From the NCBI GenBank assembly GCA_020634215.1, contig JACKCD010000019.1:30975-94974 (forward strand): a stretch of DNA of 64,000 nt, given 5' to 3'. The DNA comes from Ardenticatenaceae bacterium. Its GTDB lineage: Bacteria > Chloroflexota > Anaerolineae > Promineifilales > Promineifilaceae. Below are positions 1 to 64,000 of this stretch, piece after piece (within the stretch, counting starts at the first letter, position 1; each line of letters opens with the position of its first letter). The notes beneath the pieces were generated by a model. It was not told the DNA's origin. It did no database searches and saw only the letters and a program-made list of their open reading frames with translations. The position numbers were made by a program, and so were the translations under genes.

Positions 1-2258
1 GCCACATGAACAACCTTGCCGCCAGCGTCTTGGTGCTGGCCTTTGCCCGCAAAAGCAATAGACAAAATTTCGCCGTGCGCCCCTTCGCCCGTCATATAAA
101 CGGCCGGGTATTTCATCGTTACTTTGGAGTTGTGGACAATGAAACCTTGTGAGACAAAGTTGCCGGTCCCTTCTACTTCAATGTCCCAGGTAGGAACAAC
201 TTCGGTGGTTTCCGAAACGGTGACGGGGACAATTTCCACATCTTCACCGAGGGTGATGCTAGAACGGCCGATTTGCCGCCGCATGGTAAGTTTGGATAAC
301 GGCCGTTTTTCCGCCCGTTCTCGCAACCCCTCACTAATATACGGGTAGAGTCGTTCATCCACCATAAAGTCCAGGCGATGCGACCCATGCGCCGTACAAG
401 TCACCCCCATAATTTCTACTTGACGCGGCTCCATAAATTCGGTGTGTAAGCGCGGTGTAATGCCCAGCGAAACCAGCAGCGATGCTACATCTCCCAGCAG
501 CGGCTGATTAGCCGATTTCAGGCAAAAATACCGTTCTCGCACCAAACCATCGGCATCTAAATAGCCAGCTACAAACGCCAGCCGCTGCGATTCTGGCAGC
601 GACCAAACCCATTCTGGCACCCGTTTGCTAATCGCTTTGCCGCTAAACCCGTTCGCTTGGAAGAACTCAACCAATTCTTTACTATTCCAGGCCAGATGAA
701 CGCCGTCGGGTCGTTCTACAGGTTCTACATCAATCAAACCTGTCATTGTTTTAAGCAATTGAGGACGCGCTCGGTCTTGTTGGGGCGTGGAAAAACCAAC
801 CTTCCCCCACCGGATCATCTCTTCCGTTTTGCCTTGTTTGACCTCAATATTGCCGTCACCAACCCAGTAGCCAAACAGCCACATGATTTCATCAGTGGTC
901 ACTTCCCCCACATTCATTTTTGATGGCCGTGACCGTGTGGCCGTCAATTGCTCGGCATATTGATTGGAGGTAGTGAAGGTTGTTTCCAGTGCTGGCAAAA
1001 CCAGCGGGTGCGGCTGTCCATAATCCAACGATGTGCGCGGAATGATCGCTTCTCGCAGATGGTCAGCTCGTACATAAGCCAAACGATACCGTCCGGCCTT
1101 TTTAGCGGCCGTTTGATCATAAGCATACGAATAAAACGGGTGGTTAGCTGTCACATTGAGCTTCCGTTCCCCAACTGATACTGTATGAACCGGTTGATAG
1201 CCCGAAAATTTCTTGCCCAGTACCGTGCGGAAGCAAAGCTGTCCGGTTGCTTCATCGTAAGAAAGCACCTGATCTCCTGCCTCAAGGGCTTCAATTGGCA
1301 AAACACCCTCTGGAGTCGTCACCGTAGACCCCTCAGCCAAACAGCCTAAATTGCCGTCCACCCATTCCATCGTCGCCTTTTCTTCGGCCACAGCCCGTTT
1401 TGTCACCAAATTGTAGACGTTGTTCGACCAGTTCTGGATGGTGGTGTAGCGGCAGCGGCCACCCTTGCGGACGATGATTTCCACAACGGCCGAGTGCAGC
1501 GAGTCTGACGAGTAGATGGGCGCGGTGCAGCCTTCAACATAGTGGACATACGCCCCTTCATCCACAATAATGAGTGTACGCTCAAACTGTCCCACGTTTT
1601 TGGCGTTGATGCGGAAATAGGCTTGCAGCGGCATGTCAATGTGAACCCCTGGGGGAACATAGATAAAGCTGCCGCCTGACCAAACGGCCGTATTTAGCGC
1701 CGCAAACTTGTTGTCATTATAGGGGATGATCGTGCCAAAATATTCTTTGACCAGCTCGGGGTATTGTGCCAGCCCATCGTCCATCCCCAGGAAGACAACC
1801 CCTTTCTCCTCAAGTTCCTTCTTGATGTTGTGGTAAACCACTTCTGACTCATATTGAGCCGCTACTCCAGAGAGGAACTTTTGTTCAGCTTCAGGAATGC
1901 CAAGCTTATTAAAAGTATCTTTAATGTAGCTGGGAATATCTTCCCAATCATCGCCCTGCCGGTCGGCCGGCTTAATGTAGTAATAAATGTCGTCAAAATT
2001 AATGCCCGATAAGTCTGACCCCCAGTTGGGCATGGGGCGGCTGAGAAAATGTTGATAGGCCTTGAGGCGAATATCCAGCATCCATTCTGGCTCGTTTTTC
2101 ATCCGCGACATCATGCGGATCATTTCTTCATTCAGCCCTTTTTCGGCTTTGAAGACATAATCTTCCTTGTCGGCAAACCCATATTTTTCGGCGTAGTCGG
2201 CATTAACATCGGCAATAATTTCTTCTTCGGTTAATTCACGCTCAATCAATTCAGCCAT
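1..2258 (-). CDS. sufB: Fe-S cluster assembly protein SufB, 3' end cut by the window edge, interrupted in frame by an intein
   Basis: Manual minus-strand translation from ATG at 2258-2256: [28 protein letters not shown]...[12 protein letters not shown] / intein / [42 protein letters not shown]. The frame stays open to position 1. The start lies 2 nt after the sufC stop. Absent from the supplied ORF track because the frame runs off the window. Confidence 0.9.
129..1343 (-). mobile_element. SufB intein (405 codons) with a LAGLIDADG homing-endonuclease domain
   Basis: Starts [20 protein letters not shown] (Cys1 codon at 1343-1341). Block B is NVTANHPFY. Two LAGLIDADG motifs: [11 protein letters not shown] and [13 protein letters not shown]-terminal block is [21 protein letters not shown] followed by extein +1 Ser (codon 128-126). 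Length 1215 nt, exactly 405 codons, in frame with the exteins. Confidence 0.85.
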
Positions 2259-2260
2259 TT

Positions 2261-3043
2261 TTATGCCTCCTCGGCAACGCCATGCTTTTCACGAATCCAG
2301 TCATAGCCACGTTCTTCCATGACCAGTGCCAGCTCAGGGCCACCGCTTTCCACAATACGGCCGTCTAGCATAATGTGGACATAATCTGGTTTGATGTAGT
2401 TGAGAATACGGTGGTAGTGGGTAATGACCAGCATCCCCATCCCGTAGGATTCCTTGAGTCGGTTGGCTCCTTCGGAAACCACCCGCAGCGCGTCAATGTC
2501 CAGCCCAGAATCGGTTTCGTCCATAATGGCGATCTTGGGTTCCAGCGTTGCCATCTGTAAAATCTCGGCTCGTTTCTTTTCGCCACCAGAGAACCCTTCA
2601 TTGAGGTAGCGGCCGGCAAATTTGTGGTCAATTCCTAGCAGATCCATCTTCTCTTTAAGCACGCGGCGGAACATGGGAATAGGAATTCCTGCGTCTTCCG
2701 GGTTTTCCCCTTTGCGCTTGGAGTTGATGGCCTGGCGCAGGAACTTGGCAAGGGTCACACCCGGCACGGCCGATGGATATTGGAAAGCCAGGAAAAGCCC
2801 AGCGCGGGCGCGTTCGTCTGCTTCCATTTCCAGCAAATCCTCGCCGTTGAAAATCACCTGCCCAGCGGTGGGTTCGTAAGCTGGATGACCAGCCAGTGTA
2901 TAGGCCAGGGTGCTTTTGCCGGAGCCGTTTGGCCCCATCATGGCGTGTACTTCGCCTTGCTTAATTAGCAGGTCAATTCCTTTTAAAATATGGGTTTCCC
3001 CCACATTAGCGTGCAAATTTTTGATTTCTAGTGCAGCACTCAT
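2261..3043 (-). CDS. sufC: Fe-S cluster assembly ATPase SufC
   Basis: 260 aa. Walker [13 protein letters not shown] signature FSGGEKKR, Walker [13 protein letters not shown]. Immediately upstream of sufB. Confidence 0.95.
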
Positions 3044-3167
3044 CTGATTCTACATCTCCTGTCGTGCGTGTTGAGTTCTTAGAATAGCAGCTAAAAGCTG
3101 TTCGTTAATTGTACAAAGTATAGACGGTACCTTTTCAAGGGGCGTTTACAAGGCTAAATTATAGCAA

Positions 3168-3920
3168 ATGGGTTGTTTTGCGTCAATATTTATGATAAAA
3201 ATGATAAAAATAGCGGAAATTGACAGGGGTATGACCGAATGCTATAATTTTTTGCGTTTGGTAGACAGGGATTGTATCGTGAAATTTGTTACAAGCAACA
3301 AAACGGGCACGCGCGATGTCGTGTTGCAAACCATAAAAGAATCGGGGCAGGTGACAGTTGAGGAGCTGGCGCAGGCGGCGGATGTTTCTCCTGTAACGGT
3401 GCGGCATCATGTCAATGTGTTGCAGGCGGAGGGGTTGATTGAAGCAACGGCCGTTCGTCGCAAAGTCGGCCGGCCTTATTACGTCTATGCTCTCAGCGAA
3501 AAAGGGCAAGAACTGTTCCCCAAACGGTACGTTAGCCTTACTAACCGTCTCCTTAGCGAACTCAAATCACGCTTGCCGGCGGACACCGTGGCCGAAATCT
3601 TCAAAGGTGTCGTAGACGGGGTCATTACCGAACACGAAGGCGCATTTGAGCATCTATCGCTGGAAGAAAAGCTCGACTATCTGGTGCAGCTTCTAGGCAA
3701 AGAAGGGTTCCTGGCACGCTGGGAGCGGGATGAAACTAGTTACAAGCTCATCGAATATAGCTGCCCCTACATTTCTGTTGGTTCCAAGCACAGTGACGTG
3801 TGCAACATTGACAAAGAACTCATGCTCAACGTACTGCAACTGCCCGTGCAGCAGCACAGCTGCATGTTAGAGGGCGCAGATTGCTGCGAATTTTCTGTAG
3901 CGGCAGAAACCATACGATAA
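3168..3920 (+). CDS. sufR: SufR-like winged-helix (ArsR/DeoR-type) Fe-S regulator; the true start is probably internal (e.g. GTG near 3279)
   Basis: HTH region VTVEELAQAADVSPVTVRHHVNVLQAEGLI. C-terminal Cys cluster CPYISVGSKHSDVC...HSCMLEGADCC. Divergent from sufCB. The N-terminal 35 or so residues of the listed ORF look non-native. Confidence 0.65.
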   Translation: MGCFASIFMIKMIKIAEIDRGMTECYNFLRLVDRDCIVKFVTSNKTGTRDVVLQTIKESGQVTVEELAQAADVSPVTVRHHVNVLQAEGLIEATAVRRKVGRPYYVYALSEKGQELFPKRYVSLTNRLLSELKSRLPADTVAEIFKGVVDGVITEHEGAFEHLSLEEKLDYLVQLLGKEGFLARWERDETSYKLIEYSCPYISVGSKHSDVCNIDKELMLNVLQLPVQQHSCMLEGADCCEFSVAAETIR

Positions 3921-4312: not shown

Positions 4313-6055
4313 TTACTTAACGCTATCTGGCTTTGCTTCAATTAGCTCATACCAAACGTGAATTTTTGCCTGCCCGTGGCTTTCAAAGTAATCAACGTAG
4401 AGCGTGTGTTCCCCATCAAGGAAGAGATCAATGGCGTAGGGAGCGGAGCCATCATTGGAATGCCACTCGTCAATGACCTGTAAGTTGTCCACGGCGACCC
4501 GCACGCCATCATCCGCTTGGGCGTAGAGGCGATAGATGCCGGGGGTGAAAGTGAGCGTGCGTACCCAGCGAGCCGAGAATTCGTCGGTGGGCAGAGCCGG
4601 GAAGGGGGCCTGTTCGCCCCAGTTGAAATCAATGTCGGTGTCGTTGCGGACAAAAGCAGGCGTACCGGCCAAATATCTGTTGGCCCAATATTCACCGCGC
4701 CAGTCGGTATAGGGGGTTGTTTCTTCCCACCACAGTTGAATTTGGGCAATGCCCTGGGCTTCATAAAACTCTACCTGGATGAAGTGATTGCCGGCCGTCA
4801 GAGCAACATCAGCAGTGTAGGTGCTGCCATCGGCATCGTGCCATTCATTCAGCCGCAGTACGCTGTCAATCCAAAGCCGAACGCCGTCGTCGCTGTGGAC
4901 ATAGAAGCGGTAGTCACCTTCGGCAAAGTACAAGCTGCGCGTCCAGCGTGCCGAGAAGTTGTCGGCAGGTAGGGCAACTGCTGGTGGGTCAAAACCCCAG
5001 TTGAAATCAACGCCCGTATCATCACGAACCAACCCCGGTGTGCCACTGAGCGAGCTGTTGGCAAAGTATTCGCCGCGCCAGTTGTAGATGGTGGGCACGG
5101 GAACCGGTGTGGGTGTGGGGGTAGGCGGTGACGGTACAACGATGCGGACGTAGCACCGTTCGCCAACGGCCGTTCCGTTGGGCAACCTCAGCGACCAGTA
5201 GCCAGTGTAGGTACCGGGGGTGCTGGGGGCAATCAGATAAACGGAAACGTCAGCCGTTTCTCTAGGATTGGTGGCGGCAACGGGGATAGAAGTGGAGCCG
5301 CTCATCAGGTTGCCAGCGATAAAGACCCAACTGGTTCCGGCCGGCCAGGCGCAGTTGCCGCTGTTGCGGATACGCCAGGTTTTGAGGAAGCCAACGCCCG
5401 GTTGTACGGTGGTGTCATCGGGAATGCTCATGTCGGCAACAAAGTCCATGTCATAGGTGCAGGTTGGGGTTGGGATGGGTGTCGGGGTGGGAGTAGGGGT
5501 TGCCGTGGCCGTGGGAATGGGAGTAGGGGTGGGTGTAGGCGGCAGAGTAGCGACTTCGGTGGGGGGAATGGGTTGGGATTGGAGAGCAAAAACGGCCGTT
5601 GCTGCTCGTTCGCTGCTGGTGGACTGGGCGACAATGTGAACATCGGGCAAGCTGCGCCATTCAATATCGGTGGGGAACGTAAACGAAACAAAGAACAGCC
5701 CCGTTTCGTTGGCCGTTGCTTGGGCAATGACGGGTGGCTCACTGTTGCTGCCCAGATCATCCAGATAAAGCTGTACGGTCTCATTGGCTGCCCAGCCGGT
5801 ACCCCAAACGGCAATATTGATGCCAGCACTGCCGCTGGTGGGCGAAATCTGGATTTTTTGTTCGGTGGTGATGGCTGCGCTGCTAGGAACGGCCGTTGCC
5901 ACAGGTGCTGGCGCAAACAAACTATCCCACTGCTGGATGAGCATGGTCAGGACGATGCTCAGCAAGACAAACAGGACAGTCAGCAGCAATGCCCAGCCCC
6001 AGGGGAAGCCAAAACGGCCGTTTTGTTCACTGTGTGGTAAACGATTGGTTGTCAA
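4313..6055 (-). CDS. Membrane-anchored secreted protein: N-terminal TM anchor, Pro/Thr linkers, NBR1-like Ig domain, two PA14 domains
   Basis: 580 aa, TTG start with GGAGGGA RBS. Anchor QNGRFGFPWGWALLLTVLFVLL. PTPTPTP linkers. Two repeats of WRGEY(F/W)AN...DFNWG...FSARW...DDGVR typical of PA14. Confidence 0.75.
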   Translation of the reverse strand: MTTNRLPHSEQNGRFGFPWGWALLLTVLFVLLSIVLTMLIQQWDSLFAPAPVATAVPSSAAITTEQKIQISPTSGSAGINIAVWGTGWAANETVQLYLDDLGSNSEPPVIAQATANETGLFFVSFTFPTDIEWRSLPDVHIVAQSTSSERAATAVFALQSQPIPPTEVATLPPTPTPTPIPTATATPTPTPTPIPTPTCTYDMDFVADMSIPDDTTVQPGVGFLKTWRIRNSGNCAWPAGTSWVFIAGNLMSGSTSIPVAATNPRETADVSVYLIAPSTPGTYTGYWSLRLPNGTAVGERCYVRIVVPSPPTPTPTPVPVPTIYNWRGEYFANSSLSGTPGLVRDDTGVDFNWGFDPPAVALPADNFSARWTRSLYFAEGDYRFYVHSDDGVRLWIDSVLRLNEWHDADGSTYTADVALTAGNHFIQVEFYEAQGIAQIQLWWEETTPYTDWRGEYWANRYLAGTPAFVRNDTDIDFNWGEQAPFPALPTDEFSARWVRTLTFTPGIYRLYAQADDGVRVAVDNLQVIDEWHSNDGSAPYAIDLFLDGEHTLYVDYFESHGQAKIHVWYELIEAKPDSVK

Positions 6056-6288: not shown

Positions 6289-8001
6289 TCATTCTGGTTT
6301 TCTAGCGGGGAGTGGCTGCAAAATGAGATTAACGGCCGTTAATTCCCCCAACTCTACCCTGGCACTCACGGAAACGGTGTTGTAGCCTTTGACTGAGCTA
6401 GTGAGGGTATACTGCCCAGCCAGCAGTGGCAGATTGAATTGTCCGCTGGCATCGCTGATGACTTGAACCGTTGCCCCATTGGGCGTGGTCAATGCTAGGG
6501 GTGCTTCCGGCAGCGGCACACCGTCGGCATATAGGGTGCCTTGCAGCCGCCCGGTGAGCATTTGGCTGGCAACGGCGGCGTAGGCATCTAGCCGACCGCA
6601 GCCGCTGATGCAGGTGGTTGGCATAACGGCCGTTTGTGTTAGCACATCAATCAGTTCCTCAGGCAATAAGGTGGGGTTGGCTGACAGCAGTAGTGCTGCT
6701 GCGCCGCTGACGTGGGGTGCCGCCATCGAAGTACCAAAAAAGGTGCGGTATTGGTTGTTGGGGTAGGTGGAATAAACGGCCGTTCCCGGTGCCATTAACT
6801 CCGGTTTGTTATCGTCGGTAAAGTTGGAAGAGCCACGGCTGGAAAACCAAACCATCGTATCGCCCACATCGCAAGCACCAACGGCCAGAACAGTGCCATA
6901 GCTGGCCGGTGCGCCAATAGCCGTTGGCAGTGGGCCACTGTTGCCACTGGCAAAGATAGGCAAAATGCCACCTGCTTTTAGTGCTACTAAATCAGGTGCA
7001 AAAAGGGTGAGATCGGCCGCGCCCGACCAGGAACCGTTGACAATATCAGGAGCCAGGCTGGGGTCGCTGTTAGGTGCCAGCAGCCATTCAAACCCGGCGT
7101 GAACGGCACTGGTGACAATGAGATTGTCGGCATTGGTGATGTTGACGGCAATCCAGCGGGCGGCGGGAGCTACACCGATGCCATCTTGCCCAACGGCCGT
7201 TCCCGCCACGTGCGTTCCATGCCCCATCACATCAGTCGGTTCGCGTAGCGACTGATTGGCCGGGGAATACCAACTAGCGCGGTGGTCAACGGTGCCGTTG
7301 GGGTTCAAGCCACGATAAGTAGGACGAAGTTGGGGATGGTTCCAATCCACGCCGCTGTCCATGATGGCAACCACCACCCCTTCGCCGCGCACGCCCAGCC
7401 CTTCCCACACCAACGGTGCGCCGACGTGCTGTACGCCCCAGGTAGGCAAGGTTTGGTCATCGGTGAAGATGGCGTGGGGCAGGCTGATGCTGTCAGGAGG
7501 GGCAAAGCCGCTAAAGGTAAGATCGGGCACAATAGCCCCGACGCTGGGCAGGGAGGCGATGAGGGGCAGAATGGTTGGGTCAACGGTGGCGGCAATGGCG
7601 TTGATGATCCAAAAGGGACGAATATTATCGGCCAAGCCAAGCCGTTTTTGTTGGGTGAGCAGGTTGAGTAGCGGTGTTTGCGTGGAAACGGCCGTTTTTT
7701 GCAAGCCGTCAATGATAATCTGTCGCCGTTCCGTTTTATCGTTTGGCAGTTTGGTTGAGTCTATGCTTGTTTGCCGCGCCAGGTAGATGATAATGGGGGT
7801 AGGGTCGGTAGCTTGAGCCAGGGCGGACGCATATTTGTTGGTGCTAGATGAAACGGCCGTTTGTTCAGTCGCCAGCCAATTTTCCACCCGCTGCACGATG
7901 GCCGAAGCGGTTAGCCCCAGCAGTAGCAACAGTACTACCCAGCCCCATGGAAAGTAAAAACGGCCGTTTTGATTAGCTTGCGGTACAGTGTGAGTTGTCA
8001 T
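6289..8001 (-). CDS. Subtilisin-like S8 serine protease with N-terminal TM anchor, I9-like propeptide and C-terminal CarboxypepD_reg-like domain
   Basis: 570 aa. Catalytic triad motifs AIMDSGVD (Asp), HGTHVAGT (His), GTSMAAPHVSG (Ser). Anchor QNGRFYFPWGWVVLLLLL. Confidence 0.9.
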   Translation of the reverse strand: MTTHTVPQANQNGRFYFPWGWVVLLLLLGLTASAIVQRVENWLATEQTAVSSSTNKYASALAQATDPTPIIIYLARQTSIDSTKLPNDKTERRQIIIDGLQKTAVSTQTPLLNLLTQQKRLGLADNIRPFWIINAIAATVDPTILPLIASLPSVGAIVPDLTFSGFAPPDSISLPHAIFTDDQTLPTWGVQHVGAPLVWEGLGVRGEGVVVAIMDSGVDWNHPQLRPTYRGLNPNGTVDHRASWYSPANQSLREPTDVMGHGTHVAGTAVGQDGIGVAPAARWIAVNITNADNLIVTSAVHAGFEWLLAPNSDPSLAPDIVNGSWSGAADLTLFAPDLVALKAGGILPIFASGNSGPLPTAIGAPASYGTVLAVGACDVGDTMVWFSSRGSSNFTDDNKPELMAPGTAVYSTYPNNQYRTFFGTSMAAPHVSGAAALLLSANPTLLPEELIDVLTQTAVMPTTCISGCGRLDAYAAVASQMLTGRLQGTLYADGVPLPEAPLALTTPNGATVQVISDASGQFNLPLLAGQYTLTSSVKGYNTVSVSARVELGELTAVNLILQPLPARKPE

Positions 8002-9993: not shown

Positions 9994-10031
9994 ATCTTTT
10001 TTGCCGCCAAAGTTGCTGTACAATACATTCC

Positions 10032-47760: not shown

Positions 47761-47767
47761 ACGAGAG

Positions 47768-53263: not shown

Positions 53264-53276
53264 TGGACGTTACAGA

Positions 53277-56554: not shown

Positions 56555-56578
56555 GAGCGACTGGATAATGAGTGATTT

Positions 56579-56612
56579 AGAAGTTCAACTTCTTTGGAGA
56601 AGTTGAACTTCT
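56579..56612. repeat. 34-nt perfect hairpin element, copy 3 (loop TTGG)
   Basis: AGAAGTTCAACTTCT-TTGG-AGAAGTTGAACTTCT. 24 nt upstream of the recQ start at 56554. Confidence 0.9.
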
Positions 56613-56640
56613 TGCTTACCTATGGTTGAATGATGACTTA

Positions 56641-57135: not shown

Positions 57136-57785
57136 TCTATCTCCTCTGCTCCGGCGTTCCTTTGCTCCCCTGCTTCTTCATATCGTTTACGCGACGTGAA
57201 GGTATGTTCCCCAAAGAGGCTCAGCTGCCCAGCGGTGAGGCGGTTGATAACGGCCGTTTGCCCCACCACCTCATTATTCTCATCAATATGCGCTACGGGA
57301 ATCTCTAACTGGGTCAGCGTTGCTCCGATTAACTTGCTGCGGTGGCATGTTTCTGGCTTGCCCTCACTGCACATGAGCATCACAGCCTGCTGCTGTTGAA
57401 AGGCGGTTTGCAGACGGCCGATCCCTGCCTGATAAAAAGCCGTTTGCTTTACCTTCTCATAATCCACCTTGCCATCTGTGTAACAACTGGTATCAGACGG
57501 CCGGCCGCCCAAGCTGTCGCCCATAAAAACGTAGCGAATCCCTGCTGCCTGTAAAGCCTCTGGCAAAGACTCCTTGCCAAACTCTGGTTTATAGCGGGAG
57601 TAGGGGGCAGAGCGAATGTCAATGAGGTAGGCGATGTGGTGTTGTTGGAGAACGGCCGTAAAATCCGCCAACGACCGACTGCCATAACCGATGGTGTAGA
57701 TAGGGATTAACTGTCCGAGCATGAAGCGATTATAATCCAGCCTGGCTGTTATGACGACAAAAGGAGACGAGAAATCGTTCAGCAA
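57132..57785 (-). CDS. DUF488-family protein (second paralog); likely start at ATG 57722
   Basis: IYTIGYGSRSLADF...LIDIRSAPYSRYKPEF...MLMCSEGKPETCHRSKL. 4-nt overlap with the downstream DUF488 gene. Confidence 0.75.
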   Translation of the reverse strand: MLNDFSSPFVVITARLDYNRFMLGQLIPIYTIGYGSRSLADFTAVLQQHHIAYLIDIRSAPYSRYKPEFGKESLPEALQAAGIRYVFMGDSLGGRPSDTSCYTDGKVDYEKVKQTAFYQAGIGRLQTAFQQQQAVMLMCSEGKPETCHRSKLIGATLTQLEIPVAHIDENNEVVGQTAVINRLTAGQLSLFGEHTFTSRKRYEEAGEQRNAGAEEIE

Positions 57786-57857: not shown

Positions 57858-59801
57858 ATGTTTGGCAGGCCAGTTACTTATATTTTTAGTGGATGTTTGT
57901 GTTTGCTGATAATTTTTATGGCTGGTTGTGTGCCGAGAGAGGAGGAAGTGGCAGAAACGGCCGTTGTAAAGGTGGTGAGTACGGAAACGGCCGTTGCCAC
58001 TCCCATCGCTACCCTCCCCATCAACATGACCCGTCAAGTTATCTCGACTCTTACCCCCACCATTCCTGCCACGCTATTGCCTACCGTCACTCCTGCTTCC
58101 TCACCGACGGCCACGCCAATTCCCTTACCACTCCCACCGATGCAACCCTTCCCAACAGTTACACCTGATTATCCTTTTCATGAAACAAAACAAATTTTCT
58201 TGTTTTATGGTGATGTAGGTGGAGATGGTACTGGCTCTCTTGGTAACACACTGCCTTCTTTGGTGATTTATAACGATGGGCAATTGCTCATGGAAGTTGG
58301 TGATTGGCAGACCAGAGTCATCATGGAATCCAATCTCTCACCAAATGAGATGTGTGATTTACGAGAGAAAATTGCTGCCACTGGGTTCATGAACCCTCAT
58401 GATCCGTTTGAATACTTTACACAGCAGGATGGGAGTGCAGGCGCAACAAATATAGTTATTCAGGTGGAAGACACATTTTATTCATTTTACAGCCCCGATG
58501 TGGACTATTTGGTAGATGATTTAGCCAGCGGTTATGAGATCATAAAGAATTTTCAACCGATACAGCCTCTTGCACCCTATATCCCGGAACAATTTCTTGT
58601 TTCGTTGGAAGAATGGCCTTACGAAACGGAAACTGAGCCAATTGTTTGGCCTGAGGATTTGCCACTTTTAGCTGATTTGCGACCTGATCCTGGGCAAGAC
58701 CTTTTTGTTATTGAGAATGATCTCCTAATATCAATTTTTGACCTGTTTTCACGACAAATCTCAGTACGCTCTTTTCAAGAGGATGAAATTGTATACACGA
58801 TGCTTATCCGCCCTATTTTGCCGCATGAGACATTACAAAATGCCCTGGCTTATCCTCGCCGACCTAAGGATTATGTGCCTGTCTTAAATTGTGAAGATGA
58901 ACCCTCGCTCATTTCGTCTGCAATTCCTACAGCAACGCCAACGTTAACGGCCGATCTCACGCAACTAGTTGGACAAGGCCGCATCCTGTTTGTAACCGAC
59001 AATGATGGTGATGAAGAGATTTTTGTCATGGAAGCCGACGGCACAAATCGCCAGCGTTTGACAAATAATTTGGCTGATGATTTCTCGCCAAGCTGGTTTC
59101 CAGATGGACAGCACATCGTTTTTGCTTCAGATCGTGATGGAGATAGTGAAATTTATGTCATGGCCGCCGATGGAACAAATGTTGTACAACTCACAAATAA
59201 CGATGTAAGTGACTATGCTCCAGCTATTTCCCCTGATGGTGAACAAATTGCTTTTGTATCTGACAGGAACGGTGGATGGCAAGTATCATCGGAAATTTAC
59301 GTGATGCGTTTTGATGGTTCTCAACTACGTCGCCTGACAGACAACGATAGTCGTGATTTGGATCCTGAATGGTCAGCGGATGGCAGTCAAATATTGTTTG
59401 CACAGGAAGTTCAGTTTAATGAACTGTATAAAGTGGTTACTGTCGGTGTCGAGAGTTTAGAAACAACTGAAGTTTTGCGTGCATTTGATTATCGAAACAA
59501 CAATCCTCGTCCTATTTGGTCGGTGGATGGTTCTCATTTTGTTTGGGCTAAGCAAGTTGATGATGCTCATTCGGTTATTCAAATCATGGATAGCGCAGGC
59601 GTTTTGCAGCAAGAGATCGCGTTCCAATCAACTTATTTTCGCTCCATAAGTTGGTCATCTGATGGGCGAACTGTTCTGTTCTCCGCACGAGAGTATGGAG
59701 ATTGGGATATGGAACTATACGTTCTTGTTGTAGATGCTGGTGAAATCATTCAAATCACGCATAATCAGCAAGATGAATTTGGTGCTGTTTGGTGGCCGTA
59801 G
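57858..59801 (+). CDS. Lipoprotein with a C-terminal TolB-like PD40 beta-propeller
   Basis: Lipobox LLIIFMAGC. Pro/Thr linker. Repeated PD40 units (FSPSWFPDGQHIVFASDRDGDSEIYVM, YAPAISPDGEQIAFVSDRNG..., DPEWSADGSQILFA). GAGGA RBS before ATG 57858. Confidence 0.75.
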   Translation: MFGRPVTYIFSGCLCLLIIFMAGCVPREEEVAETAVVKVVSTETAVATPIATLPINMTRQVISTLTPTIPATLLPTVTPASSPTATPIPLPLPPMQPFPTVTPDYPFHETKQIFLFYGDVGGDGTGSLGNTLPSLVIYNDGQLLMEVGDWQTRVIMESNLSPNEMCDLREKIAATGFMNPHDPFEYFTQQDGSAGATNIVIQVEDTFYSFYSPDVDYLVDDLASGYEIIKNFQPIQPLAPYIPEQFLVSLEEWPYETETEPIVWPEDLPLLADLRPDPGQDLFVIENDLLISIFDLFSRQISVRSFQEDEIVYTMLIRPILPHETLQNALAYPRRPKDYVPVLNCEDEPSLISSAIPTATPTLTADLTQLVGQGRILFVTDNDGDEEIFVMEADGTNRQRLTNNLADDFSPSWFPDGQHIVFASDRDGDSEIYVMAADGTNVVQLTNNDVSDYAPAISPDGEQIAFVSDRNGGWQVSSEIYVMRFDGSQLRRLTDNDSRDLDPEWSADGSQILFAQEVQFNELYKVVTVGVESLETTEVLRAFDYRNNNPRPIWSVDGSHFVWAKQVDDAHSVIQIMDSAGVLQQEIAFQSTYFRSISWSSDGRTVLFSAREYGDWDMELYVLVVDAGEIIQITHNQQDEFGAVWWP

Positions 59802-59813: not shown

Positions 59814-59919
59814 AAACGGCCGTTGTGAGAGCCGCTGTCAACACCCCCTCAAACGGCTCCACCAGCCCTGACCGCCGCAACCGATACCAGCGAATTTGGG
59901 CTTCTGTCAGTCGAATCAT
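59814..59919 (-). pseudogene. Relic of the first 35 codons of an AlkZ/YcaQ-like gene
   Basis: MIRLTEAQIRWYRLRRSGLVEPFEGVLTAALTTAV. About 92% nt identity (9 mismatches by eye) with 53158-53264. Homology ends abruptly. ATGA overlap with the stop of the 59916-60317 gene. Confidence 0.75.
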
Positions 59920-60317
59920 TGCTCTTGCTCTAACAAGTGCAGCAGTGCTAGCCCGTATGCTTCGCTGGCGCTGGTGGCGGTAAAGTGGTGGCGATTGTTG
60001 AGGATGCAGGTGATGGTAACGGCCGTTTGTTGCAGCGTACATTCCGCCACCCGTTGCCCAATTTGTTCCCGCAGCTGCGTTTCTGTAGGCAACCACACCA
60101 CCTCATGCGTCCAAATATGATCAAGCGCCCATTCCGTTGCTCCCGCAAAAGCGACCACCGGCCAGCCGCGCAGCAGGTCAAGATAAGCCATCGTATCGCT
60201 GAGAACAAAAACCTGCTCGTCCAGACCACTCACTGGAACTGCAAAAAAATCATGGTTTTGCGCCATCCATATCAACCCAGCCTCTTTAAGCCGTTGTGCT
60301 AATGCCAGAGAAATCAT
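59916..60317 (-). CDS. Hypothetical protein (133 aa)
   Basis: ATG-initiated ORF with no motif recognised. Translationally coupled (ATGA) to the ycaQ-like relic. Confidence 0.45.
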   Translation of the reverse strand: MISLALAQRLKEAGLIWMAQNHDFFAVPVSGLDEQVFVLSDTMAYLDLLRGWPVVAFAGATEWALDHIWTHEVVWLPTETQLREQIGQRVAECTLQQTAVTITCILNNRHHFTATSASEAYGLALLHLLEQEQ

Positions 60318-60320: not shown

Positions 60321-63300
60321 TTGCTTTCATCACCCTTCACCCATAAGATCACGCCTATGGATGAACTGCCGCCCTATTTTACGCATCTTCACGTACATTC
60401 CCACTATTCGCTGCTGGGTGGAACCGCCGCCGTGCCGGATTTGGTGGCGCGGGCGGTGGCGGAGGGGCGGCGAGCATTGACGCTCACCGACAGCGCCGCC
60501 CTCTATGGGGCCGTTGCCCTGCACAAAGCGTGCCGCGCCGCCAACATTCAGCCCATCATTGGCCTTACCCTCCCCATTGCCACCCCCGCCGAAGATTTGG
60601 CCGAGCAAACCACGCCGGGGCAGGTGGTGCTGCTGGCGCAAAACCCCGCTGGCTATCGCTCCCTGTGCCGCCTCGCTTCGCAGTTGGACGGGGCGCAGCC
60701 GGTGGAATTGGGCTTGTTGCGCGATTTTAGCGAGGGTGTTATTTGTCTGGACGGTGGGCGGCGGGGCTGGATCAACCGCTTTGTGCGGGCGGGTAACACG
60801 GCGGCGGCGGTGCGCTATGCGTCGCGGCTGGCGGCGATTTTTCAGGAGAATGGGTATGTGGGGGTGGAATTAACGGCCGTTTCCCCCCGCCGCCACACCC
60901 AAGACCTGCTCAAAATTGGCGCACGTTTTGGCCTAGCTCCCGTGGCTCTGCAGCCTGTTTACTGCCTGGAACCCGATGAGCGGGAGATGCTGCGGCTGCT
61001 AACGGCCGTTTCCCACAACTGCACCCTTGACGAACTCAACCCCGTTTTGCTGCCCGACGAGGGAGAAACGGCCGTTGACCTCCACTGGCTGCCCCCCGAC
61101 GAGATGCTGGCGCGGTACGCCGACCTGCCCGAAGCCCTCACCAACGCCGCCGAAATCGTCAAACAGTGCGAGCCGTCACTGCCAGACGGCCGTTCCATCT
61201 GGCCCGCCCTCAAGCTGCCCGACGGCCAAAGCAGCGACGAGGCATTGGCCGAATGGGTGCGAGTGGGGCTGGGCGACCATTTTCTTGACGGGCTGGATGC
61301 GGCGGGAGAGCAGCGACTGCGGCGTGAATTGGAAGCATTGCGGGCGCGGGGGTTGGCTCCCCTCTTTTTGGTCGTGGCCGACATTGTGGGGTTTGCCCGC
61401 CAGCTTGATATTCCCGTCAACACGCGGGGTAGCGTCGCCAATTCGCTCGTTGCTTACTGCCTCGGCATCACCACCGTCAACCCGCTCGTCCATGACCTGC
61501 TGTTTGAGCGGTTTCTCAACCCCGCCCGCGCCAACTTGCCTGACATTGACCTCGATTTTTGCAGCCGCCGCCGCGACGAGGTGCTGGATTATGTGCGCCA
61601 AACGTATGGCGAGGATCGGGTGGCGCTGGTGGCGACGGTCAACACCCTCAAGCCCAAGTCGGCGGTGCGCGAGGTTGCCAAGGCGTTTGGGCTGCCGGAG
61701 AGCCGCATTGGCAAGCTGGCTGCGCTGGTGCCGCACCGCGATTGGCACCCCGACCCGCGCCGCCGCGAGACAGCTTTGCTCGATGACCTGCTGGCGCAGC
61801 TTGACGACCCGCAGGAGCAGGCAATCTTTCGCGCCGCCTTTCAACTCATCGGACAGCCGGATCACCTCAGCGTTCACCCCGGCGGCATCGTCATCACCCC
61901 CGGCCCACTCACCGACGTGGTGCCGGTGCAGATGGCACCGAAGGGGTTTCTCATTACCCAGTACGATCACCGCGACGTGGAGGCGATTGGGCTGCCGAAG
62001 ATTGATTTGCTGGGGATTCGGGCGTTGACGGTGCTGGCCGATGCTGCCGAACTGGTGCGAACCCACCACGCGCCGTCGTTTCGGCTGGGGCAGATTGGGC
62101 AGGGGGATGAAAAAACGGCCGTTTTGCTCGCCACCGCCGACACCATTGGCGTGTTCCAATGCGAATCCACCGGGGCGCAGCGCACCCTGCGCCAGCTTCG
62201 CGCCCGCAGCGTGGCCGATCTCGCCATTGCCAACGCCTTTTTCAAGCCCGGCCCGGCCACCGGCGGCATGGCAAAAAGTTTTGTCCGCCGCTATCGGGGC
62301 GAGGAGGCGGTCAGCTATTTGCACCCAACGTTGCAGCCGATTTTGGGCAAGACGCAGGGGGTGCTGCTCTTTCAGGAGCAAATTCTGCGTATAGCCACCG
62401 AGATCGCCGGGTTAAGCTGGCAGGAAGCCGACCATTTACGGCGGGGGATGAGCAAATTTTTGGCGCGGGAGATGGCGGCACTGCGGACGCGCTTTGTCAC
62501 GGGGTGCCAGCGGCAGGCAGGGTTTACGCCGGAGCAAGCGGAGACGCTGTGGCAGCAGGTGATGGCCTTTGCCGGATACGGCTTCAACCAGGGTCACGCC
62601 ACGGCGTATGCGGCGGTGAGTTATGAGTCGGCCTATTTGAAAGCCCACTGGCCGGCCGAATTTCTCTGTGCGCGGCTGGCCGATGCCGGTGGCTTCCACC
62701 ATCAGGCGATTTACGTGGCCGAGGCGCGGCGGCTGGGCATCACGGTGCGGCCGCCGCATGTGAATGCGAGTGGGCGGAAGTTTGTGCTGTCGTATGAAGA
62801 GCGTGGGGCGTGGGGAGTAGGGAGTACGCCACACCCCACACGCCACACCCCACACCCCACGCTTTGGATGGGCCTCGGCCAAGTCCGTGACCTGCGGCGC
62901 AAAAGTGTGGCGGCGATTCGGGCGGAACGGCCGTTTGCCAACCTGCGTGATCTGCTGGCGCGGGTGGCGTTGCAAGACAAGGAAGTGGTGCACCTCATCC
63001 AGTGCGGGGCGCTGGATGGGCTGGGGGAGAGCCGAGCGGCGCTGCTGGCGGAGGCGCGGGGGGTGGCGCGGGCGGGGAGTGCGCGGCAGTTGAGCTTTGG
63101 CTTTGCGCTGGAAACGGCCGTTTTGCCCGACACCGCTGCCGAACGGGCCGAATGGGAACGCCATCTGCTGGGGTATCCGGTGAGCGTGCAGCCCGGCGAT
63201 TTGGTTGCGCCCCCAGCCGAGGCGGTTCCGCTGCGCGAGCTGCCGCAAACGCGGGGCAAGCTGGTGACAATTGCTGGCTGGCGGCTGCCCGGCTGGACGG

Positions 63301-63455
63301 GTGGGCGCGGCTTTTATTTTGGCGACGGCGACAGCTTTGTGGTGGTGCGGGAGGCAACAGAGGGGGGAAAGGTGCGGAAATCGTGGCAGCCGGTGGTGAT
63401 TAACGGCCGTTGGCGCAGCGATGAGTGGGGGAATGGGGTGTTTCAGGTAGGATAG
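60321..63455 (+). CDS. dnaE: DNA polymerase III alpha subunit DnaE; likely start at ATG 60357
   Basis: PHP domain FTHLHVHSHYSLLGG. Polymerase core (PDIDLDF, GIVITP, GLPKIDLLG, NQGHATAY). OB-fold region. Confidence 0.95.
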   Translation: MLSSPFTHKITPMDELPPYFTHLHVHSHYSLLGGTAAVPDLVARAVAEGRRALTLTDSAALYGAVALHKACRAANIQPIIGLTLPIATPAEDLAEQTTPGQVVLLAQNPAGYRSLCRLASQLDGAQPVELGLLRDFSEGVICLDGGRRGWINRFVRAGNTAAAVRYASRLAAIFQENGYVGVELTAVSPRRHTQDLLKIGARFGLAPVALQPVYCLEPDEREMLRLLTAVSHNCTLDELNPVLLPDEGETAVDLHWLPPDEMLARYADLPEALTNAAEIVKQCEPSLPDGRSIWPALKLPDGQSSDEALAEWVRVGLGDHFLDGLDAAGEQRLRRELEALRARGLAPLFLVVADIVGFARQLDIPVNTRGSVANSLVAYCLGITTVNPLVHDLLFERFLNPARANLPDIDLDFCSRRRDEVLDYVRQTYGEDRVALVATVNTLKPKSAVREVAKAFGLPESRIGKLAALVPHRDWHPDPRRRETALLDDLLAQLDDPQEQAIFRAAFQLIGQPDHLSVHPGGIVITPGPLTDVVPVQMAPKGFLITQYDHRDVEAIGLPKIDLLGIRALTVLADAAELVRTHHAPSFRLGQIGQGDEKTAVLLATADTIGVFQCESTGAQRTLRQLRARSVADLAIANAFFKPGPATGGMAKSFVRRYRGEEAVSYLHPTLQPILGKTQGVLLFQEQILRIATEIAGLSWQEADHLRRGMSKFLAREMAALRTRFVTGCQRQAGFTPEQAETLWQQVMAFAGYGFNQGHATAYAAVSYESAYLKAHWPAEFLCARLADAGGFHHQAIYVAEARRLGITVRPPHVNASGRKFVLSYEERGAWGVGSTPHPTRHTPHPTLWMGLGQVRDLRRKSVAAIRAERPFANLRDLLARVALQDKEVVHLIQCGALDGLGESRAALLAEARGVARAGSARQLSFGFALETAVLPDTAAERAEWERHLLGYPVSVQPGDLVAPPAEAVPLRELPQTRGKLVTIAGWRLPGWTGGRGFYFGDGDSFVVVREATEGGKVRKSWQPVVINGRWRSDEWGNGVFQVG
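62801..62862. repeat. GTGGGG/CCCCAC short-period inverted repeat inserted in frame in dnaE
   Basis: GCGTGGGGCGTGGGGAGTAGGGAGT ACGCCACACCCCACACGCCACACCCCACACCCCACGC, encoding RGAWGVGSTPHPTRHTPHPT. Confidence 0.8.
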
Positions 63456-63456
63456 G

Positions 63457-63500
63457 TTGGAGATTGGAGATTGGGAGATTGGAGATTAGGAGATTGCAGT
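63457..63500. repeat. Tandem GGAGATT-type short-period repeat after the dnaE stop
   Basis: TTGGAGATTGGAGATTGGGAGATTGGAGATTAGGAGATT. Confidence 0.85.
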
Positions 63501-63616
63501 CTTCGACAGAACCTGGTTTATAAGGTGTGGCACATTGCCACGCACCAATGTGACGACAGACGACTTATCCGCGTTCATCCGTGTTCGTCTGCGTCCCATG
63601 TTTAAGAGGAGAGGAG

Positions 63617-64000
63617 ATGGAAAACGGCCGTTCTACGATATTTGTAAGCACACGATCCCTGCCCTGGTGGTCGCTGCTTGTTCCCGGCGTGATCGCTATT
63701 TTGGCGGGCGCGTTTATCTTTTTTCAAACCGATAACTTTGTCCAGCTTCTGACCATCACCGTTGGCTTTTTTGTCCTGCTAAACGGCATTGCTACCGTCA
63801 TTGGGGCCATCCGCAGCGGCGGCGATAGCGGGCGGCGGTTGCTGACGCTGCTGCGCGGCGTGCTGGGCATTGTCATTGGCGCATTGGCACTGACGCTGCC
63901 CTTTATGTTTGCCGCCATTGCCTGGAGCGTGATGCTAACGCTGGTGGCGATTCAGCTCATCATAGCCGCCATTTTGGAAATCGGCGTGGCGTACCGGCTG
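63617..64000 (+). CDS. DUF308 (HdeD-like) membrane protein, 3' end cut by the window edge
   Basis: Manual translation from ATG 63617 (GAGGAG RBS): MENGRSTIFVSTRSLPWWSLLVPGVIAILAGAFIFF...LLRGVLGIVIGALALTLPF. Open to position 64000. Not in the ORF track. Confidence 0.6.
   Translation, partial: MENGRSTIFVSTRSLPWWSLLVPGVIAILAGAFIFFQTDNFVQLLTITVGFFVLLNGIATVIGAIRSGGDSGRRLLTLLRGVLGIVIGALALTLPFMFAAIAWSVMLTLVAIQLIIAAILEIGVAYRL

Follow-up and report, generated by a model that had tools for sequence, protein, structure and literature searches.

What maintains a single 10-base palindrome, AACGGCCGTT, about once in every ~750 bases (~1.3 per kb) of a Chloroflexota chromosome? The question was raised by an initial annotation of a 64-kb window (the whole stretch of DNA analysed here) from the Promineifilaceae/Ardenticatenaceae group, in which roughly 85 copies were estimated by eye and the word was likened to HIP1 of cyanobacteria.

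Abundance and dispersal of the palindrome

The exact count is 85, against ~0.1 expected, and all ten of the positions originally given as examples were recovered to within 1 base (298, 6013, 7959, 10112, 19225, 31164, 45204, 54269, 62114 and 63623). Dinucleotide shuffles of the window predicted 0.07 copies, and window-trained Markov models of orders 1-4, in which all CGGCCG neighbourhoods were masked, predicted 0.09-0.18, placing the count far above background. When masking was omitted, order-4 and order-5 models gave 4.4 and 18, only because AACGGCCGTT itself dominates the k-mer table. The runner-up 10-nt palindrome of the window occurs 2 times, and one-mismatch variants of AACGGCCGTT number only 22, versus the 85 exact copies. 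In 747 kb of DNA that uses the 10-mer spelling, 902 exact copies were found, versus ~1 per control 10-mer, with the one-mismatch classes declining steeply from the outer to the inner position (273, 78, 15, 18, 4). The longer extensions that had been described as frequent turned out to be a minority, as AAACGGCCGTTT accounts for 25 of the 85 copies, AAAACGGCCGTTTT for 9 of the 85 and GAAACGGCCGTTTC for at most 2 occurrences.

As had been proposed, the copies are dispersed: 76 lie within 24 functionally unrelated genes and 9 are intergenic; coding DNA carries 1.35 copies per kb and non-coding DNA 1.19. The intergenic copies are found at 298-307, 15374-15383, 16381-16390, 35621-35630, 60018-60027 and 63623-63632, at 28763-28772 and 28775-28784 (a pair between convergent genes, with starts 12 nt apart), and at 59815-59824, within a 108-nt duplicate of 53158-53265. 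Confinement to one duplicated family or to a mobile element was not observed. The S8 protease paralogues A and B account for 3-4 shared copies (6625-6634 with 11336-11345, 6775-6784 with 11186-11195, and 7192-7201 with 10769-10778), which leaves the conclusion of an iterated palindrome unaffected. Information in the flanks is absent beyond position ±5-6, and since the flanks are unconserved a mobile element was rejected; AACGGCCGTT is a bare 10-base word with no larger element around it.

Reading frames and the peptide imprint

The initial annotation placed the copies on both strands and in all three frames. The first part is uninformative because AACGGCCGTT is a palindrome; the second stands, with the qualification that usage is very uneven, the coding copies being read 58 times as x-T-A-V, 13 times as N-G-R-x and 5 times as x-R-P-x. 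Outside LigA, the T-A-V frame is used in an HTH regulator gene (3446-3455), a PA14/Ig gene (5165-5174, 5591-5600, 5888-5897), S8 protease A (6331-6340, 7687-7696, 7852-7861 and the three paralogous copies above), S8 protease B (10112-10121, 10274-10283, 10511-10520, 12266-12275, 12815-12824, 13229-13238, 13871-13880, 14141-14150 and their three counterparts), a GAF histidine kinase (19225-19234, 19339-19348, 19951-19960, 20437-20446, 20530-20539, 21100-21109), a PALP-receiver gene (24231-24240), a GNAT/FemAB gene (28340-28349), an amine oxidase gene (29066-29075, 29414-29423), an M32 carboxypeptidase gene (34875-34884), a BNR/sortilin gene (38886-38895), a TfoX_N gene (39462-39471), a hybrid histidine kinase (40509-40518, 40641-40650, 40905-40914), a GAF-PAS histidine kinase (42862-42871), TsaD (45358-45367, 45493-45502), SelA (47425-47434), an AlkZ-like glycosylase gene (53159-53168), RecQ (53780-53789, 54269-54278, 54713-54722, 55568-55577, 56387-56396), a DUF488 gene (57249-57258), a PD40 gene (57956-57965, 57986-57995) and a DnaE-like polymerase gene (60872-60881, 61001-61010, 61067-61076, 62114-62123, 63113-63122). 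N-G-R is encoded in the PA14/Ig gene (6013-6022), S8 proteases A (7959-7968) and B (11772-11781, 13122-13131), a HAD hydrolase gene (8917-8926), the BNR/sortilin gene (36937-36946), the hybrid (40390-40399) and GAF-PAS (43989-43998) kinases, TsaD (45204-45213), SelA (46455-46464, 46596-46605) and the polymerase gene (63402-63411), and R-P in a response regulator gene (14662-14671), the GNAT/FemAB gene (27919-27928) and the polymerase gene (62926-62935).

The peptide imprint that had been noticed (TAV, NGR, RP) is real and could be quantified. The observed/expected ratio is 7.9 for TAV (an ~8-fold excess) and 5.9 for NGR, while permutations of both are near 1. Among the 61 TAV tripeptides of the window 60 use the spelling ACGGCCGTT, against the 4% that codon usage would give, and just 1 is spelled otherwise, versus ~7 expected. 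The use of all frames, the intergenic copies and the nearly invariable ACGGCCGTT spelling of TAV together indicate that the target is the DNA and not the protein. The force on AACGGCCGTT acts at the DNA level, including where it changes amino acids in proteins.

Origin, retention and spelling of the sites

The six LigA copies could be followed by codon alignment, in which R, T, A or V stands at motif sites where relatives differ and no insertions or deletions are seen. The T-A-V copy at 30870-30879 is an orthologous site common to up to 35 genomes; T-A-V at 31164-31173 is T-G-A, T-G-E or T-A-A in relatives, P-T-A-V at 31515-31524 is P-A-A-V or P-N-A-V, and N-G-R-F at 32168-32177 has L, V, A or Q for R. 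The E-R-P-L site at 31654-31663 was gained in the window lineage, the relative L001 differing there by 3 bases, including a D to E change. Across genomes this site forms a graded series (AGGGGGCGGT, AGCGGCCGGT, AACGGCCGAT, AACGGCCGTT), and the window, L009, L017 and L037 each gained the full word independently. New AACGGCCGTT sites thus arise in place by point substitution, including convergent gains. The substitutions that form a site leave the protein unchanged where they can and alter amino acids at residues that tolerate it.

Once present, a copy is kept far more strictly than neighbouring sequence. L001, at 87% identity, retains 11 of 12 window sites unchanged, versus 27% of all 10-mers; conserved copies include those at 21100, 24231, 27919, 28340, 29066 and 29414 and the LigA E-R-P-L copy at 31882-31891. 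Over all locus pairs of 75-80% identity, 65% of sites were conserved versus 16-18% of controls, and at 80-85% identity the figures were 79% and 26%, matched control words being conserved 2–4 times less well than palindrome sites. Deviations concentrate at the outer bases, and "ghost" sites with one mismatch in the core are no commoner than in motif-free relatives.

Two parts of the window are poor in the word. The longest AACGGCCGTT-free island, 5.7 kb at 47435-53158, contains an LRR-Roc-COR gene, lacks CGGCCG wholly from 48 to 52 kb and is probably younger or foreign DNA. The stretch at 21110-27918 has 1 copy per 6.8 kb and carries low-GC (43-48% GC) signalling and transporter genes; the syntenic stretch of L001 is just as poor. 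We take the low-GC genes and the empty island as a sign of time dependence in the filling of sites.

The count was repeated in 80 related genomes, and a CGGCCG-centred family was found clade-wide, with CGGCCG the top palindrome almost everywhere. Among these genomes ACGGCCGT is dominant in a large subclade and AACGGCCGTT in only a few lineages (the window, L001, L011, L025, L037 and L068). Other spellings are CACGGCCGTG in L065, (C)GCGGCCGC(G) in L040 and L052, (T)TCGGCCGA(A) in L059 and TGCCGGCA in L070 and L050, and in L074-L078 CGGCCG occurs alone, at 3-4.4 per kb, without flank preference. Specificity is layered: the 6-base core is strictest, next come the two outer bases of the 8-mer (2/9 in the 10-mer) and last positions 1/10, and the outer layers vary by lineage. 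The same word is borne by the clade's phages, at equal or higher density, and by its other mobile elements.

Likeness to HIP1 and possible mechanisms

The HIP1-like reading is borne out, as AACGGCCGTT agrees with HIP1 in every sequence-level property examined: its density of ~1.3 per kb, dispersal in unrelated genes and intergenic DNA, lack of conserved flanks, origin by substitution in place, conservation of orthologous sites above controls, deviations at outer positions and other palindromes taking its place in related lineages. It belongs with HIP1 among the highly iterated palindromes and differs from it in the sequence itself. The alternative HIPs of cyanobacteria follow the specificity of resident methyltransferases and a methyl-directed biased-repair ratchet was proposed (PMC4390886), and in Synechocystis the HIP1 core is fully m5C-methylated (PMC6105098). 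Dnd phosphorothioation is also known to target a cGGCCg core (PMC1888814).

The best explanation overall, to which we give about an even chance, is that a sequence-specific DNA-modifying or DNA-nicking system, probably dimeric, recognises this HIP1-kind word as its site. The mechanism is most likely a DNA modification specific for the core that works together with biased repair or recombination. In its likeliest form the modification (m5C, m4C, possibly phosphorothioate) would be specific for CGGCCG or GGCC and linked to strand-biased mismatch correction or recombination, so that site-completing mutations would be kept and site-breaking ones reversed. Such a ratchet or trap would over time fill all permissive positions and leave recently acquired DNA empty, and the spelling would shift when the flank-reading component changes. 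Several results count against modification. Typical type II methyltransferase sites are shorter than a 10-bp palindrome. Core one-mismatch variants show no clear depletion relative to relatives (ratios 0.6-1.2), and in the 747 kb there is no clear deamination hotspot (12, 9 and 4 C-to-T variants at the three cytosines). Elhai's model requires a G before the methylated C, a rule that fits neither the main spelling here, with its A flank, nor the spellings of other lineages that have T or C there. Within the 64-kb window and in 1.5 Mb of related loci, no gene for a DNA methyltransferase or for a Vsr-like or MutH-like protein tied to the motif was found. Neither the window nor ~2 Mb of accessible related DNA yielded a CGGCCG- or GGCC-specific methyltransferase or restriction gene, for which the initial annotation had proposed to search; motif-rich metagenomic DNA (592 kb) gave a single methyltransferase-class find, an Eco57I/MmeI-type enzyme.

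The main rival is that the word is selected as a self-recognition or DNA-uptake signal. Phages selected to mimic a host "self" signal would also be expected to show an equal or higher density, and Xu et al. argued that conserved HIP1 sites point to selection rather than neutral replenishment (PMC5861425).

Such palindromes are described in the searchable literature only in cyanobacteria. AACGGCCGTT is one lineage's spelling within a CGGCCG-centred family that pervades the Promineifilaceae/Ardenticatenaceae group and is shared by its phages, which goes beyond the initial annotation, and the family, which has several lineage-specific spellings, represents a counterpart of cyanobacterial HIP1, itself long unexplained, that is independent of it and spelled differently.

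Abundance, placement and protein imprint of the palindrome

An exact count of the 10-base palindrome AACGGCCGTT gave 85 copies in the 64,000 bases of the window, the figure that the initial annotation had estimated by eye, and the example positions listed there were right to within one base. The density is 1.33 per kb (85 in 64 kb), while only 0.07-0.2 copies in all would be expected: dinucleotide shuffles of the window yielded 0.07 copies, and Markov models of orders 1-4, trained on the window with the CGGCCG neighbourhoods masked, predicted 0.09-0.18, so that the Markov comparison proposed as a check upheld the excess. Unmasked order-4 and order-5 models expect 4.4 and 18 copies, respectively; these values are circular, since the sub-word counts behind them are dominated by the motif itself. 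The runner-up among 10-nt palindromes has 2 copies, CGGCCG (151) and the 8-mer ACGGCCGT (97) are the top 6- and 8-nt palindromes of the window, and the peak is sharp, with 85 exact copies against 22 one-mismatch variants altogether. HIP1 (GCGATCGC), the iterated palindrome of cyanobacteria, does not appear in the list of the commonest 8-nt palindromes there.

The window is ordinary chromosomal DNA, with genes for LigA, TsaD, SelA, RecQ, a DnaE-like polymerase, an M32 carboxypeptidase, two S8 proteases, many two-component signalling proteins and others. As claimed, the copies are scattered over unrelated genes and intergenic DNA: 76 of them (89%) lie in 24 different genes and 9 are intergenic, and their density is about equal in coding (1.35 per kb) and non-coding DNA (1.19 per kb). 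All three reading frames occur, as had also been stated, but they are used unevenly, with 58 copies read as x-T-A-V (76% of genic copies), 13 as N-G-R-x and 5 as x-R-P-x; a strand orientation is impossible, since the word is a perfect palindrome. The longer forms that had been described as frequent turned out to be a minority (AAACGGCCGTTT 25/85; AAAACGGCCGTTTT 9/85). Past ±5-6 bases the flanks show no more than a slight symmetric bias, towards G 5' of the word and towards C 3' of it, and are not conserved, and the information content around the copies is confined to 10 (weakly 12) positions. Thus AACGGCCGTT is a bare word and not a MITE or REP element. REP/BIME elements and MITEs are also palindromic and highly repeated, but they are intergenic units of 20-150 nt with conserved flanks, whereas the word found here is 10 nt long, mostly genic and without conserved flanks. 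The two S8 protease genes are paralogues at 80% identity that have 3 or 4 copies in common, which leaves the conclusion on AACGGCCGTT unaffected.

The peptide imprint proposed from the sequence was confirmed in the window proteins, where TAV is 7.9-fold and NGR 5.9-fold over-represented, with permuted residues near 1. Sixty of the 61 T-A-V tripeptides in the annotated proteins are spelled ACGGCCGTT, where codon usage predicts about 4%, and for 58 of these the preceding codon ends in A. TAV in any other spelling occurs once, against about 7 predicted from composition, so that the synonymous neighbours of the word have been absorbed. In a codon alignment of LigA from 81 genomes, the motif sites of motif-bearing lineages encode N-G-R-F, P-T-A-V or Q-T-A-V; in relatives, R gives way to L, V, A or Q, T to A or N, and A-V to G-A, G-E or A-A, and no insertions or deletions occur at these sites. 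The force acts on the DNA and overrides weak protein constraints.

Spacing of the copies is clumped (CV 1.23 versus 0.98 at random placement), which rules out regular spacing in the window. Copy number rises with local GC content (Spearman rho 0.50); the density is 0.42 per kb in genes of less than 50% GC and 1.6 per kb in the others, while composition alone would, by our own arithmetic, give a difference of about 1.7-fold between low- and high-GC density. The largest motif-free stretch (47435-53158) contains an LRR-Roc-COR gene, and its CGGCCG count is 0 between 48 and 52 kb. We infer that motif-poor DNA may be younger or foreign, as was reported for HIP1 islands; in L001, the closest species representative, the low-GC block at 21-28 kb has a syntenic counterpart that is just as poor in the motif, so the block is not a very recent arrival. 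The GC content of genes ranges from 39% to 65% within the 64 kb (for example 24993-27592, 29822-30513 and 32934-34001 versus 9945-14252 and 60321-63455), and low-GC genes nearly without the motif include EamA, a MazF/CopG pair, DUF2442, a 2'-5' RNA ligase and several response regulators.

Several other repeats were seen in the window. The LRR-Roc-COR gene (a Roco-type GTPase, 48658-52119), which lies inside the largest motif-free island, holds an array (48857-49839) of about 15 head-to-tail 66-bp units, each encoding one 22-residue leucine-rich repeat; their 98-99% nucleotide identity suggests a very recent expansion or ongoing homogenisation. An intergenic hairpin of 37-39 nt, AGAAGTTCAACTTCT-(4-5 nt)-AGAAGTTGAACTTCT, occurs in at least three copies (35541-35577, 53276-53314 and 56575-56613) and again in L001 (9783-9830 and 15046-15094); it has no relation to the 10-mer and resembles a REP element or a terminator. 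Directly upstream of selA, at 47768-47838, lies a long, nearly perfect hairpin with 34-nt arms and a 3-nt loop, made of 7-nt and 14-nt repeats (AGTAATCGGTAATC, TTACTGA). A 108-nt duplicate at 92% identity (53158-53265 and 59814-59921) carries one motif in each copy, one copy overlying the 5' end of an AlkZ-like gene and the other lying downstream of a PD40 gene, and a perfect 18-nt x 3 tandem repeat (CGTGACAAATAAACCGCA) is located at 15912-15965, at the start of a response-regulator ORF. An Rfam scan of the window gave no RNA family at the gathering score.

Lineage spellings and the origin of sites

Loci anchored on LigA place the window in the Promineifilaceae/Ardenticatenaceae group of the Anaerolineae, Chloroflexota (Candidatus Leptofilum, Promineifilum, Leptovillus). 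The nearest species representative is MAG BC3.16 (L001, JAWKPA010000013; LigA identity 92%), and a strain of the same species at 98% identity to the window is also available (GCA_020432595.1). Complete or near-complete sequences in the set also include NZ_OZ244997.1 (L019), JACKBQ010000001 (L009), CBDCVS010000003 (L048) and OZ244995.1 (L070), and exact-protein matches for extending the window's own genome lay on contigs of 8 kb and 2 kb only. Counting in relatives, which the initial annotation had recommended, extended the enrichment well past the window: CGGCCG ranks first among 6-nt palindromes in nearly all of 80 related loci, where it reaches 2-5 copies per kb while composition predicts about 0.2-0.4. 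Five loci (L074-L078) have this core with no flank preference, a large subclade has ACGGCCGT at up to 2.9 per kb, and in the window, L001, L011, L025, L037 and L068 65-100% of the 8-mers are extended to AACGGCCGTT. Other loci carry CACGGCCGTG (L065, 30/32 8-mers), (C)GCGGCCGC(G) (L040 and L052), (T)TCGGCCGA(A) (L059) or CCGGCCGG/GGCCGGCC (L062 and L073), and in L070 and L050, with TGCCGGCA, CGGCCG is at or below background. Specificity is layered, the spelling of the flanks is lineage-specific, and the word is present in mobile elements. In a metagenome scan for two copies 100-130 bases apart, at least 592 kb matched, with 1.19 copies per kb among the matches listed. In the lineage of L070 and L050 the CGGCCG-centred word has been replaced by TGCCGGCA, the core of which is GCCGGC (a NaeI-type site); L070 has 47 copies of TGCCGGCA in 22 kb and a single CGGCCG.

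The sites are strongly retained. Between the window and L001 (10.9 kb aligned, 87% identity) 11/12 window sites are intact, as opposed to 27% of all 10-mers. Over all locus pairs at 75-80% identity ACGGCCGT is kept in 65% of cases, matched-GC 8-mers in 16-18% and other GC-rich palindromes in 9%, and at 80-85% identity the values are 79% for ACGGCCGT versus 26% for controls; these pairwise figures are taken as qualitative, since the locus pairs are phylogenetically non-independent. None of the 155 differences from the 98%-identical strain falls inside the 11 shared sites, where about 2 would be expected, which is not significant. Sites that are not shared between loci often differ at 3-5 of 8 bases.

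Copies arise in place by substitution. The orthologous site of the copy at 31654 reads AGGGGGCGGT, AGCGGCCGGT, AACGGCCGGT or AACGGCCGAT in relatives, and the full word is found there in four separate lineages (the window, L009, L017 and L037), while L001, the sister of the window, has three bases unlike those of the window, including an Asp-to-Glu change. Read along these aligned loci, the site shows a stepwise and convergent origin of the word. The ACGGCCGT-type genomes contain 1188 exact copies in 721 kb and only 5-27 members in each core one-mismatch class, and since these classes are no commoner than in motif-less relatives, decayed "ghost" sites do not accumulate. In 747 kb with the 10-mer spelling, 902 exact copies were counted, control words having about 1 each, and the one-mismatch variants drop from 273 at the outermost position through 78, 15 and 18 to 4 at the innermost. 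One-mismatch neighbours, sought as a sign of conversion, stand at ratios of 0.6-1.2 to motif-less relatives, and clear depletion is restricted to the non-motif TAV spellings (1 versus about 7 expected).

A deamination hotspot was considered and rejected. Both sites present only in L001 have a C7-to-T change in the window, and all four core variants in the window lie at C7/G4. The pooled data lent no support to a single hot cytosine, with the 8-mer variants flat and C-to-T counts of 12, 9 and 4 for the 10-mer, and the pairwise C-to-T skew among locus pairs was inflated by phylogenetic pseudo-replication. No outgroup aligning at the two L001-only sites was found.

Mobile elements, the putative writer and competing explanations

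Phage and conjugative-type contigs (L086, L082, L087, L081 and L091) bear the palindrome of the clade at host-like or higher density and in matching spelling. L086 (IMGVR_UViG_3300030397_000671), which encodes a portal and a head protease/major head protein, has 19 copies in 12.9 kb (1.47 per kb, 86% of 8-mers extended) in the same spelling as the window, and L082 has 9 copies in 7.1 kb. L087, with a large terminase, a major head protein and a ParB-methyltransferase fusion, carries 37 ACGGCCGT and CGGCCG at 7.8 per kb; L081 (ParA, FtsK, a lytic transglycosylase, an antirepressor and RadC) carries ACGGCCGT at 3.7 per kb, and L091 has 8 copies of the CACGGCCGTG spelling in 4.5 kb. Whatever writes or selects the word thus acts on phage and plasmid-like DNA of the clade as well. 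Viral matches for the CACGGCCGTG and TTCGGCCGAA spellings were mostly chance occurrences in high-GC phages, L091 alone being convincing, and a search for further relatives of L086 returned L086 alone. Some of the phage copies lie inside portal and capsid genes, and the ParB-DNA methyltransferase fusion of L087 adjoins the terminase.

Neither the window nor about 2 Mb of related DNA yielded a suitable methyltransferase for the core. A Pfam search of all 38 genes of the window gave a Methyltransf_19 protein only and no recognised DNA methyltransferase family, and in 1.5 Mb of related loci no methyltransferase, Vsr or restriction gene was detected by phmmer, with an approximate C5-methyltransferase query (M.HhaI), or by motif regular expressions. 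The same search of 592 kb of metagenomic loci, among the matches listed, retrieved neither Vsr nor a C5 methyltransferase and only a fused restriction-methylase of the Eco57I/MmeI type (1390 residues; L185:1631-5800, on metagenome contig WBZL01000128.1). Such enzymes act on asymmetric sites and are adenine methylases, which makes it unlikely that this one reads the palindrome. A small cluster of DNA-repair type was noted in the window: a RecQ that has a dual-OB domain at its N-terminus and an AlkZ-like glycosylase lie beside two adjacent DUF488 genes (56641-57785), one of which belongs to the "active N3a" subclade.

The best explanation may be a sequence-specific modification or nicking system with CGGCCG or GGCC as its core, which would bias repair or recombination in such a way that completed sites are trapped and broken sites restored; a change in the part that reads the flanks would then change the spelling. 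The model published for HIP1 is poorly matched. Its proposed "G before methyl-C" rule does not apply, since the flanks are A..T here and not G..C (T, C or G precedes the core in other lineages), and further against it are a length of 10 bp, which is long for a methyltransferase site, the lack of an evident deamination hotspot and the lack of a candidate enzyme in the DNA searched.

The main rival is an uptake or recombination signal of "self". It is possible, though we would not call it probable, that the word is a selected recognition signal for DNA exchange, acting as an uptake sequence and/or a Chi-like recombination enhancer; the fuller proposal, that it spreads by biased uptake and recombination of motif-bearing fragments from relatives and that the spellings restrict exchange to close kin, may be entertained at a similarly low level of confidence. 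Occurrence about once per kb, traces left in proteins at tolerant residues and species-specific spellings recall the DUS of Neisseria and the USS of Haemophilus, phages and a conjugative-type element carry the host spelling at host-like or higher density, and the differences of 3-5 in 8 bases at non-shared sites fit allele replacement. TfoX/Sxy proteins are competence regulators in other bacteria, and a stand-alone TfoX N-terminal-domain gene (TfoX_N, 39184-39504) in the window offers a weak hint in the same direction. HIP1 is reported to lift natural transformation up to 100-fold in a methylation-dependent manner and has been considered Chi-like (bioRxiv 10.1101/2024.09.10.611283), and its abundance co-varies with DNA-uptake and type IV machinery (bioRxiv 10.64898/2026.06.24.733823). 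However, known uptake signals and Chi are asymmetric and AACGGCCGTT is a perfect palindrome, natural competence of the clade is not established, an uptake signal has no obvious benefit to phages, and the graded intermediates at one orthologous site suggest stepwise substitution and not wholesale replacement. Since one and the same methylated word might give repair its direction and also function in DNA exchange, this rival is compatible with a methylation component and overlaps the modification or nicking explanation instead of excluding it.

An improbable alternative is that an abundant dimeric protein, nucleoid-associated or chromosome-organising, binds the word, the sites or their distribution being selected for chromosome structure. 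A perfect 10-bp palindrome with layered specificity would suit a homodimeric DNA-binding protein, site conservation is well above controls, and selection together with a 10-90 kb periodicity was inferred for HIP1 (Xu et al., PMC5861425). The clumped spacing and the saturation of permissive positions make a role in chromosome architecture less likely, as 60 of 61 TAV filled looks like an unbounded drive and not like an optimum in number or spacing; moreover, each change of spelling would need thousands of sites to shift together with the protein, and the word is common to phages. The site-specific nucleoid proteins known to us have tens of sites per genome, not thousands. That the word is an ordinary by-product of a duplicated gene family, a MITE/REP element, selection for the T-A-V peptide, codon bias or an assembly artefact has a negligible chance of being right. 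The copies shared by the S8 protease paralogues and the predominance of T-A-V among genic copies are what such an origin would predict, yet the copies occur in 24 unrelated host genes and intergenically, with no conservation past ±5-6 bases and with three reading frames in use; the spelling of TAV is fixed far above what codon usage would give, relatives have other amino acids at the same positions, and the word recurs in dozens of independently assembled genomes and metagenomes. These observations together refute all five of these origins.

Relation to known systems and significance

The description of HIP1 in cyanobacteria reportedly dates to Robinson in 1995. Cyanobacterial HIP1 reaches 500-2500 copies per Mb, occurs in all frames and in non-coding DNA, is propagated by substitution and deviates at outer positions, and exceptional lineages have alternative palindromes that match resident methyltransferases (PMC4390886); its conservation is above controls (PMC5861425) and its core is m5C-methylated (PMC6105098). 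Like HIP1 and the alternative HIPs (Elhai 2015, PMC4390886; Xu 2018, PMC5861425), the word studied here is a short, GC-rich perfect palindrome at about 0.5-2.5 per kb, found in all reading frames and intergenically, spread by substitution, kept at orthologous sites above controls, with one-base deviations at outer positions and alternative palindromes in related lineages, and missing from apparently foreign DNA. In both, the core is a 6-bp type II restriction or methylation site around a 4-bp site (PvuI-type/GATC in HIP1, EagI-type/GGCC here). The suggestion that this is a HIP1-like palindrome of a different sequence therefore agrees with the class in every sequence-level feature examined (density, dispersal, substitution, conservation, outer deviations and alternatives). 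It is not HIP1 itself, as both the sequence (AACGGCCGTT versus GCGATCGC) and the phylum (Chloroflexota versus cyanobacteria) differ. Unlike HIP1, specificity reaches 10 bp in the lineage of the window, in some relatives the 6-mer is enriched by itself with no preference in the flanks, something reported not to hold for CGATCG, and at least six spellings exist inside one family-level clade. Full-text literature searches turned up such palindromes in cyanobacteria only, and no description of this motif as repeated across a genome. The feature is real and very strong, and we regard it as a member of the HIP class from a second phylum, whose spellings form a clade-wide family and are shared by the phages.

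Other systems resemble the word in part. The DUS of Neisseria and the USS of Pasteurellaceae also occur about once per kb, are genic with an imprint at tolerant positions, have lineage-specific spellings and are kept by a process at the DNA level and not by protein function; they are, in contrast to the perfect palindrome here, asymmetric 9-12-mers read by a defined receptor in naturally competent bacteria. Enrichment of a methyltransferase site by directional mismatch correction, as at E. coli Dcm sites with Vsr repair, follows the logic of the ratchet proposed here, but the enrichment there stays below about 2-fold, as against roughly a thousand-fold for the 10-mer here. A Chi-type hotspot was rejected as the identity of the word, because Chi is an asymmetric octamer with a replication strand bias and a perfect palindrome can have no strand orientation. 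We know of no phosphorothioation sites that are over-represented. The Dnd site cGGCCg of Streptomyces lividans (PMC1888814) shares the palindromic core, its GGCC centre being strict and its flanks looser, and is a lead only; no dnd genes were seen in the DNA examined.

It may tentatively be proposed that the clade holds an independently evolved and rapidly diversifying signature-word system, in which a putative reader writes a CGGCCG-centred palindrome into resident and phage DNA. With no greater assurance, recognition might be supposed to have grown from 6 to 8 to 10 bp with repeated switches of the flanks, giving every lineage a spelling of its own in common with its mobile elements. If so, the word would be a kin or self label for DNA, serving exchange, repair direction or defence, and not a passive methyltransferase by-product.

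About thirty years after HIP1 became known, there is still debate over where it comes from and what it does. To our knowledge, HIP examples have so far come from one phylum and essentially one sequence, which partly limits progress. The Chloroflexota system is a second, independent one, with a different core, and its spellings in close relatives are natural replicates that allow a search for the gene that changes with the spelling, be it for a methyltransferase, a nicking enzyme, an uptake receptor or a DNA-binding protein. Its value is comparative, because the HIP question becomes testable by association of gene content with spelling and by methylomes, which are directly readable in several genomes that are long-read assemblies. 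The word shapes proteins (TAV 8-fold), its absence may mark foreign DNA and a shared spelling links phages to their hosts, and it can thus be of use for binning, host prediction and the detection of horizontal transfer in a clade abundant in wastewater and soil.
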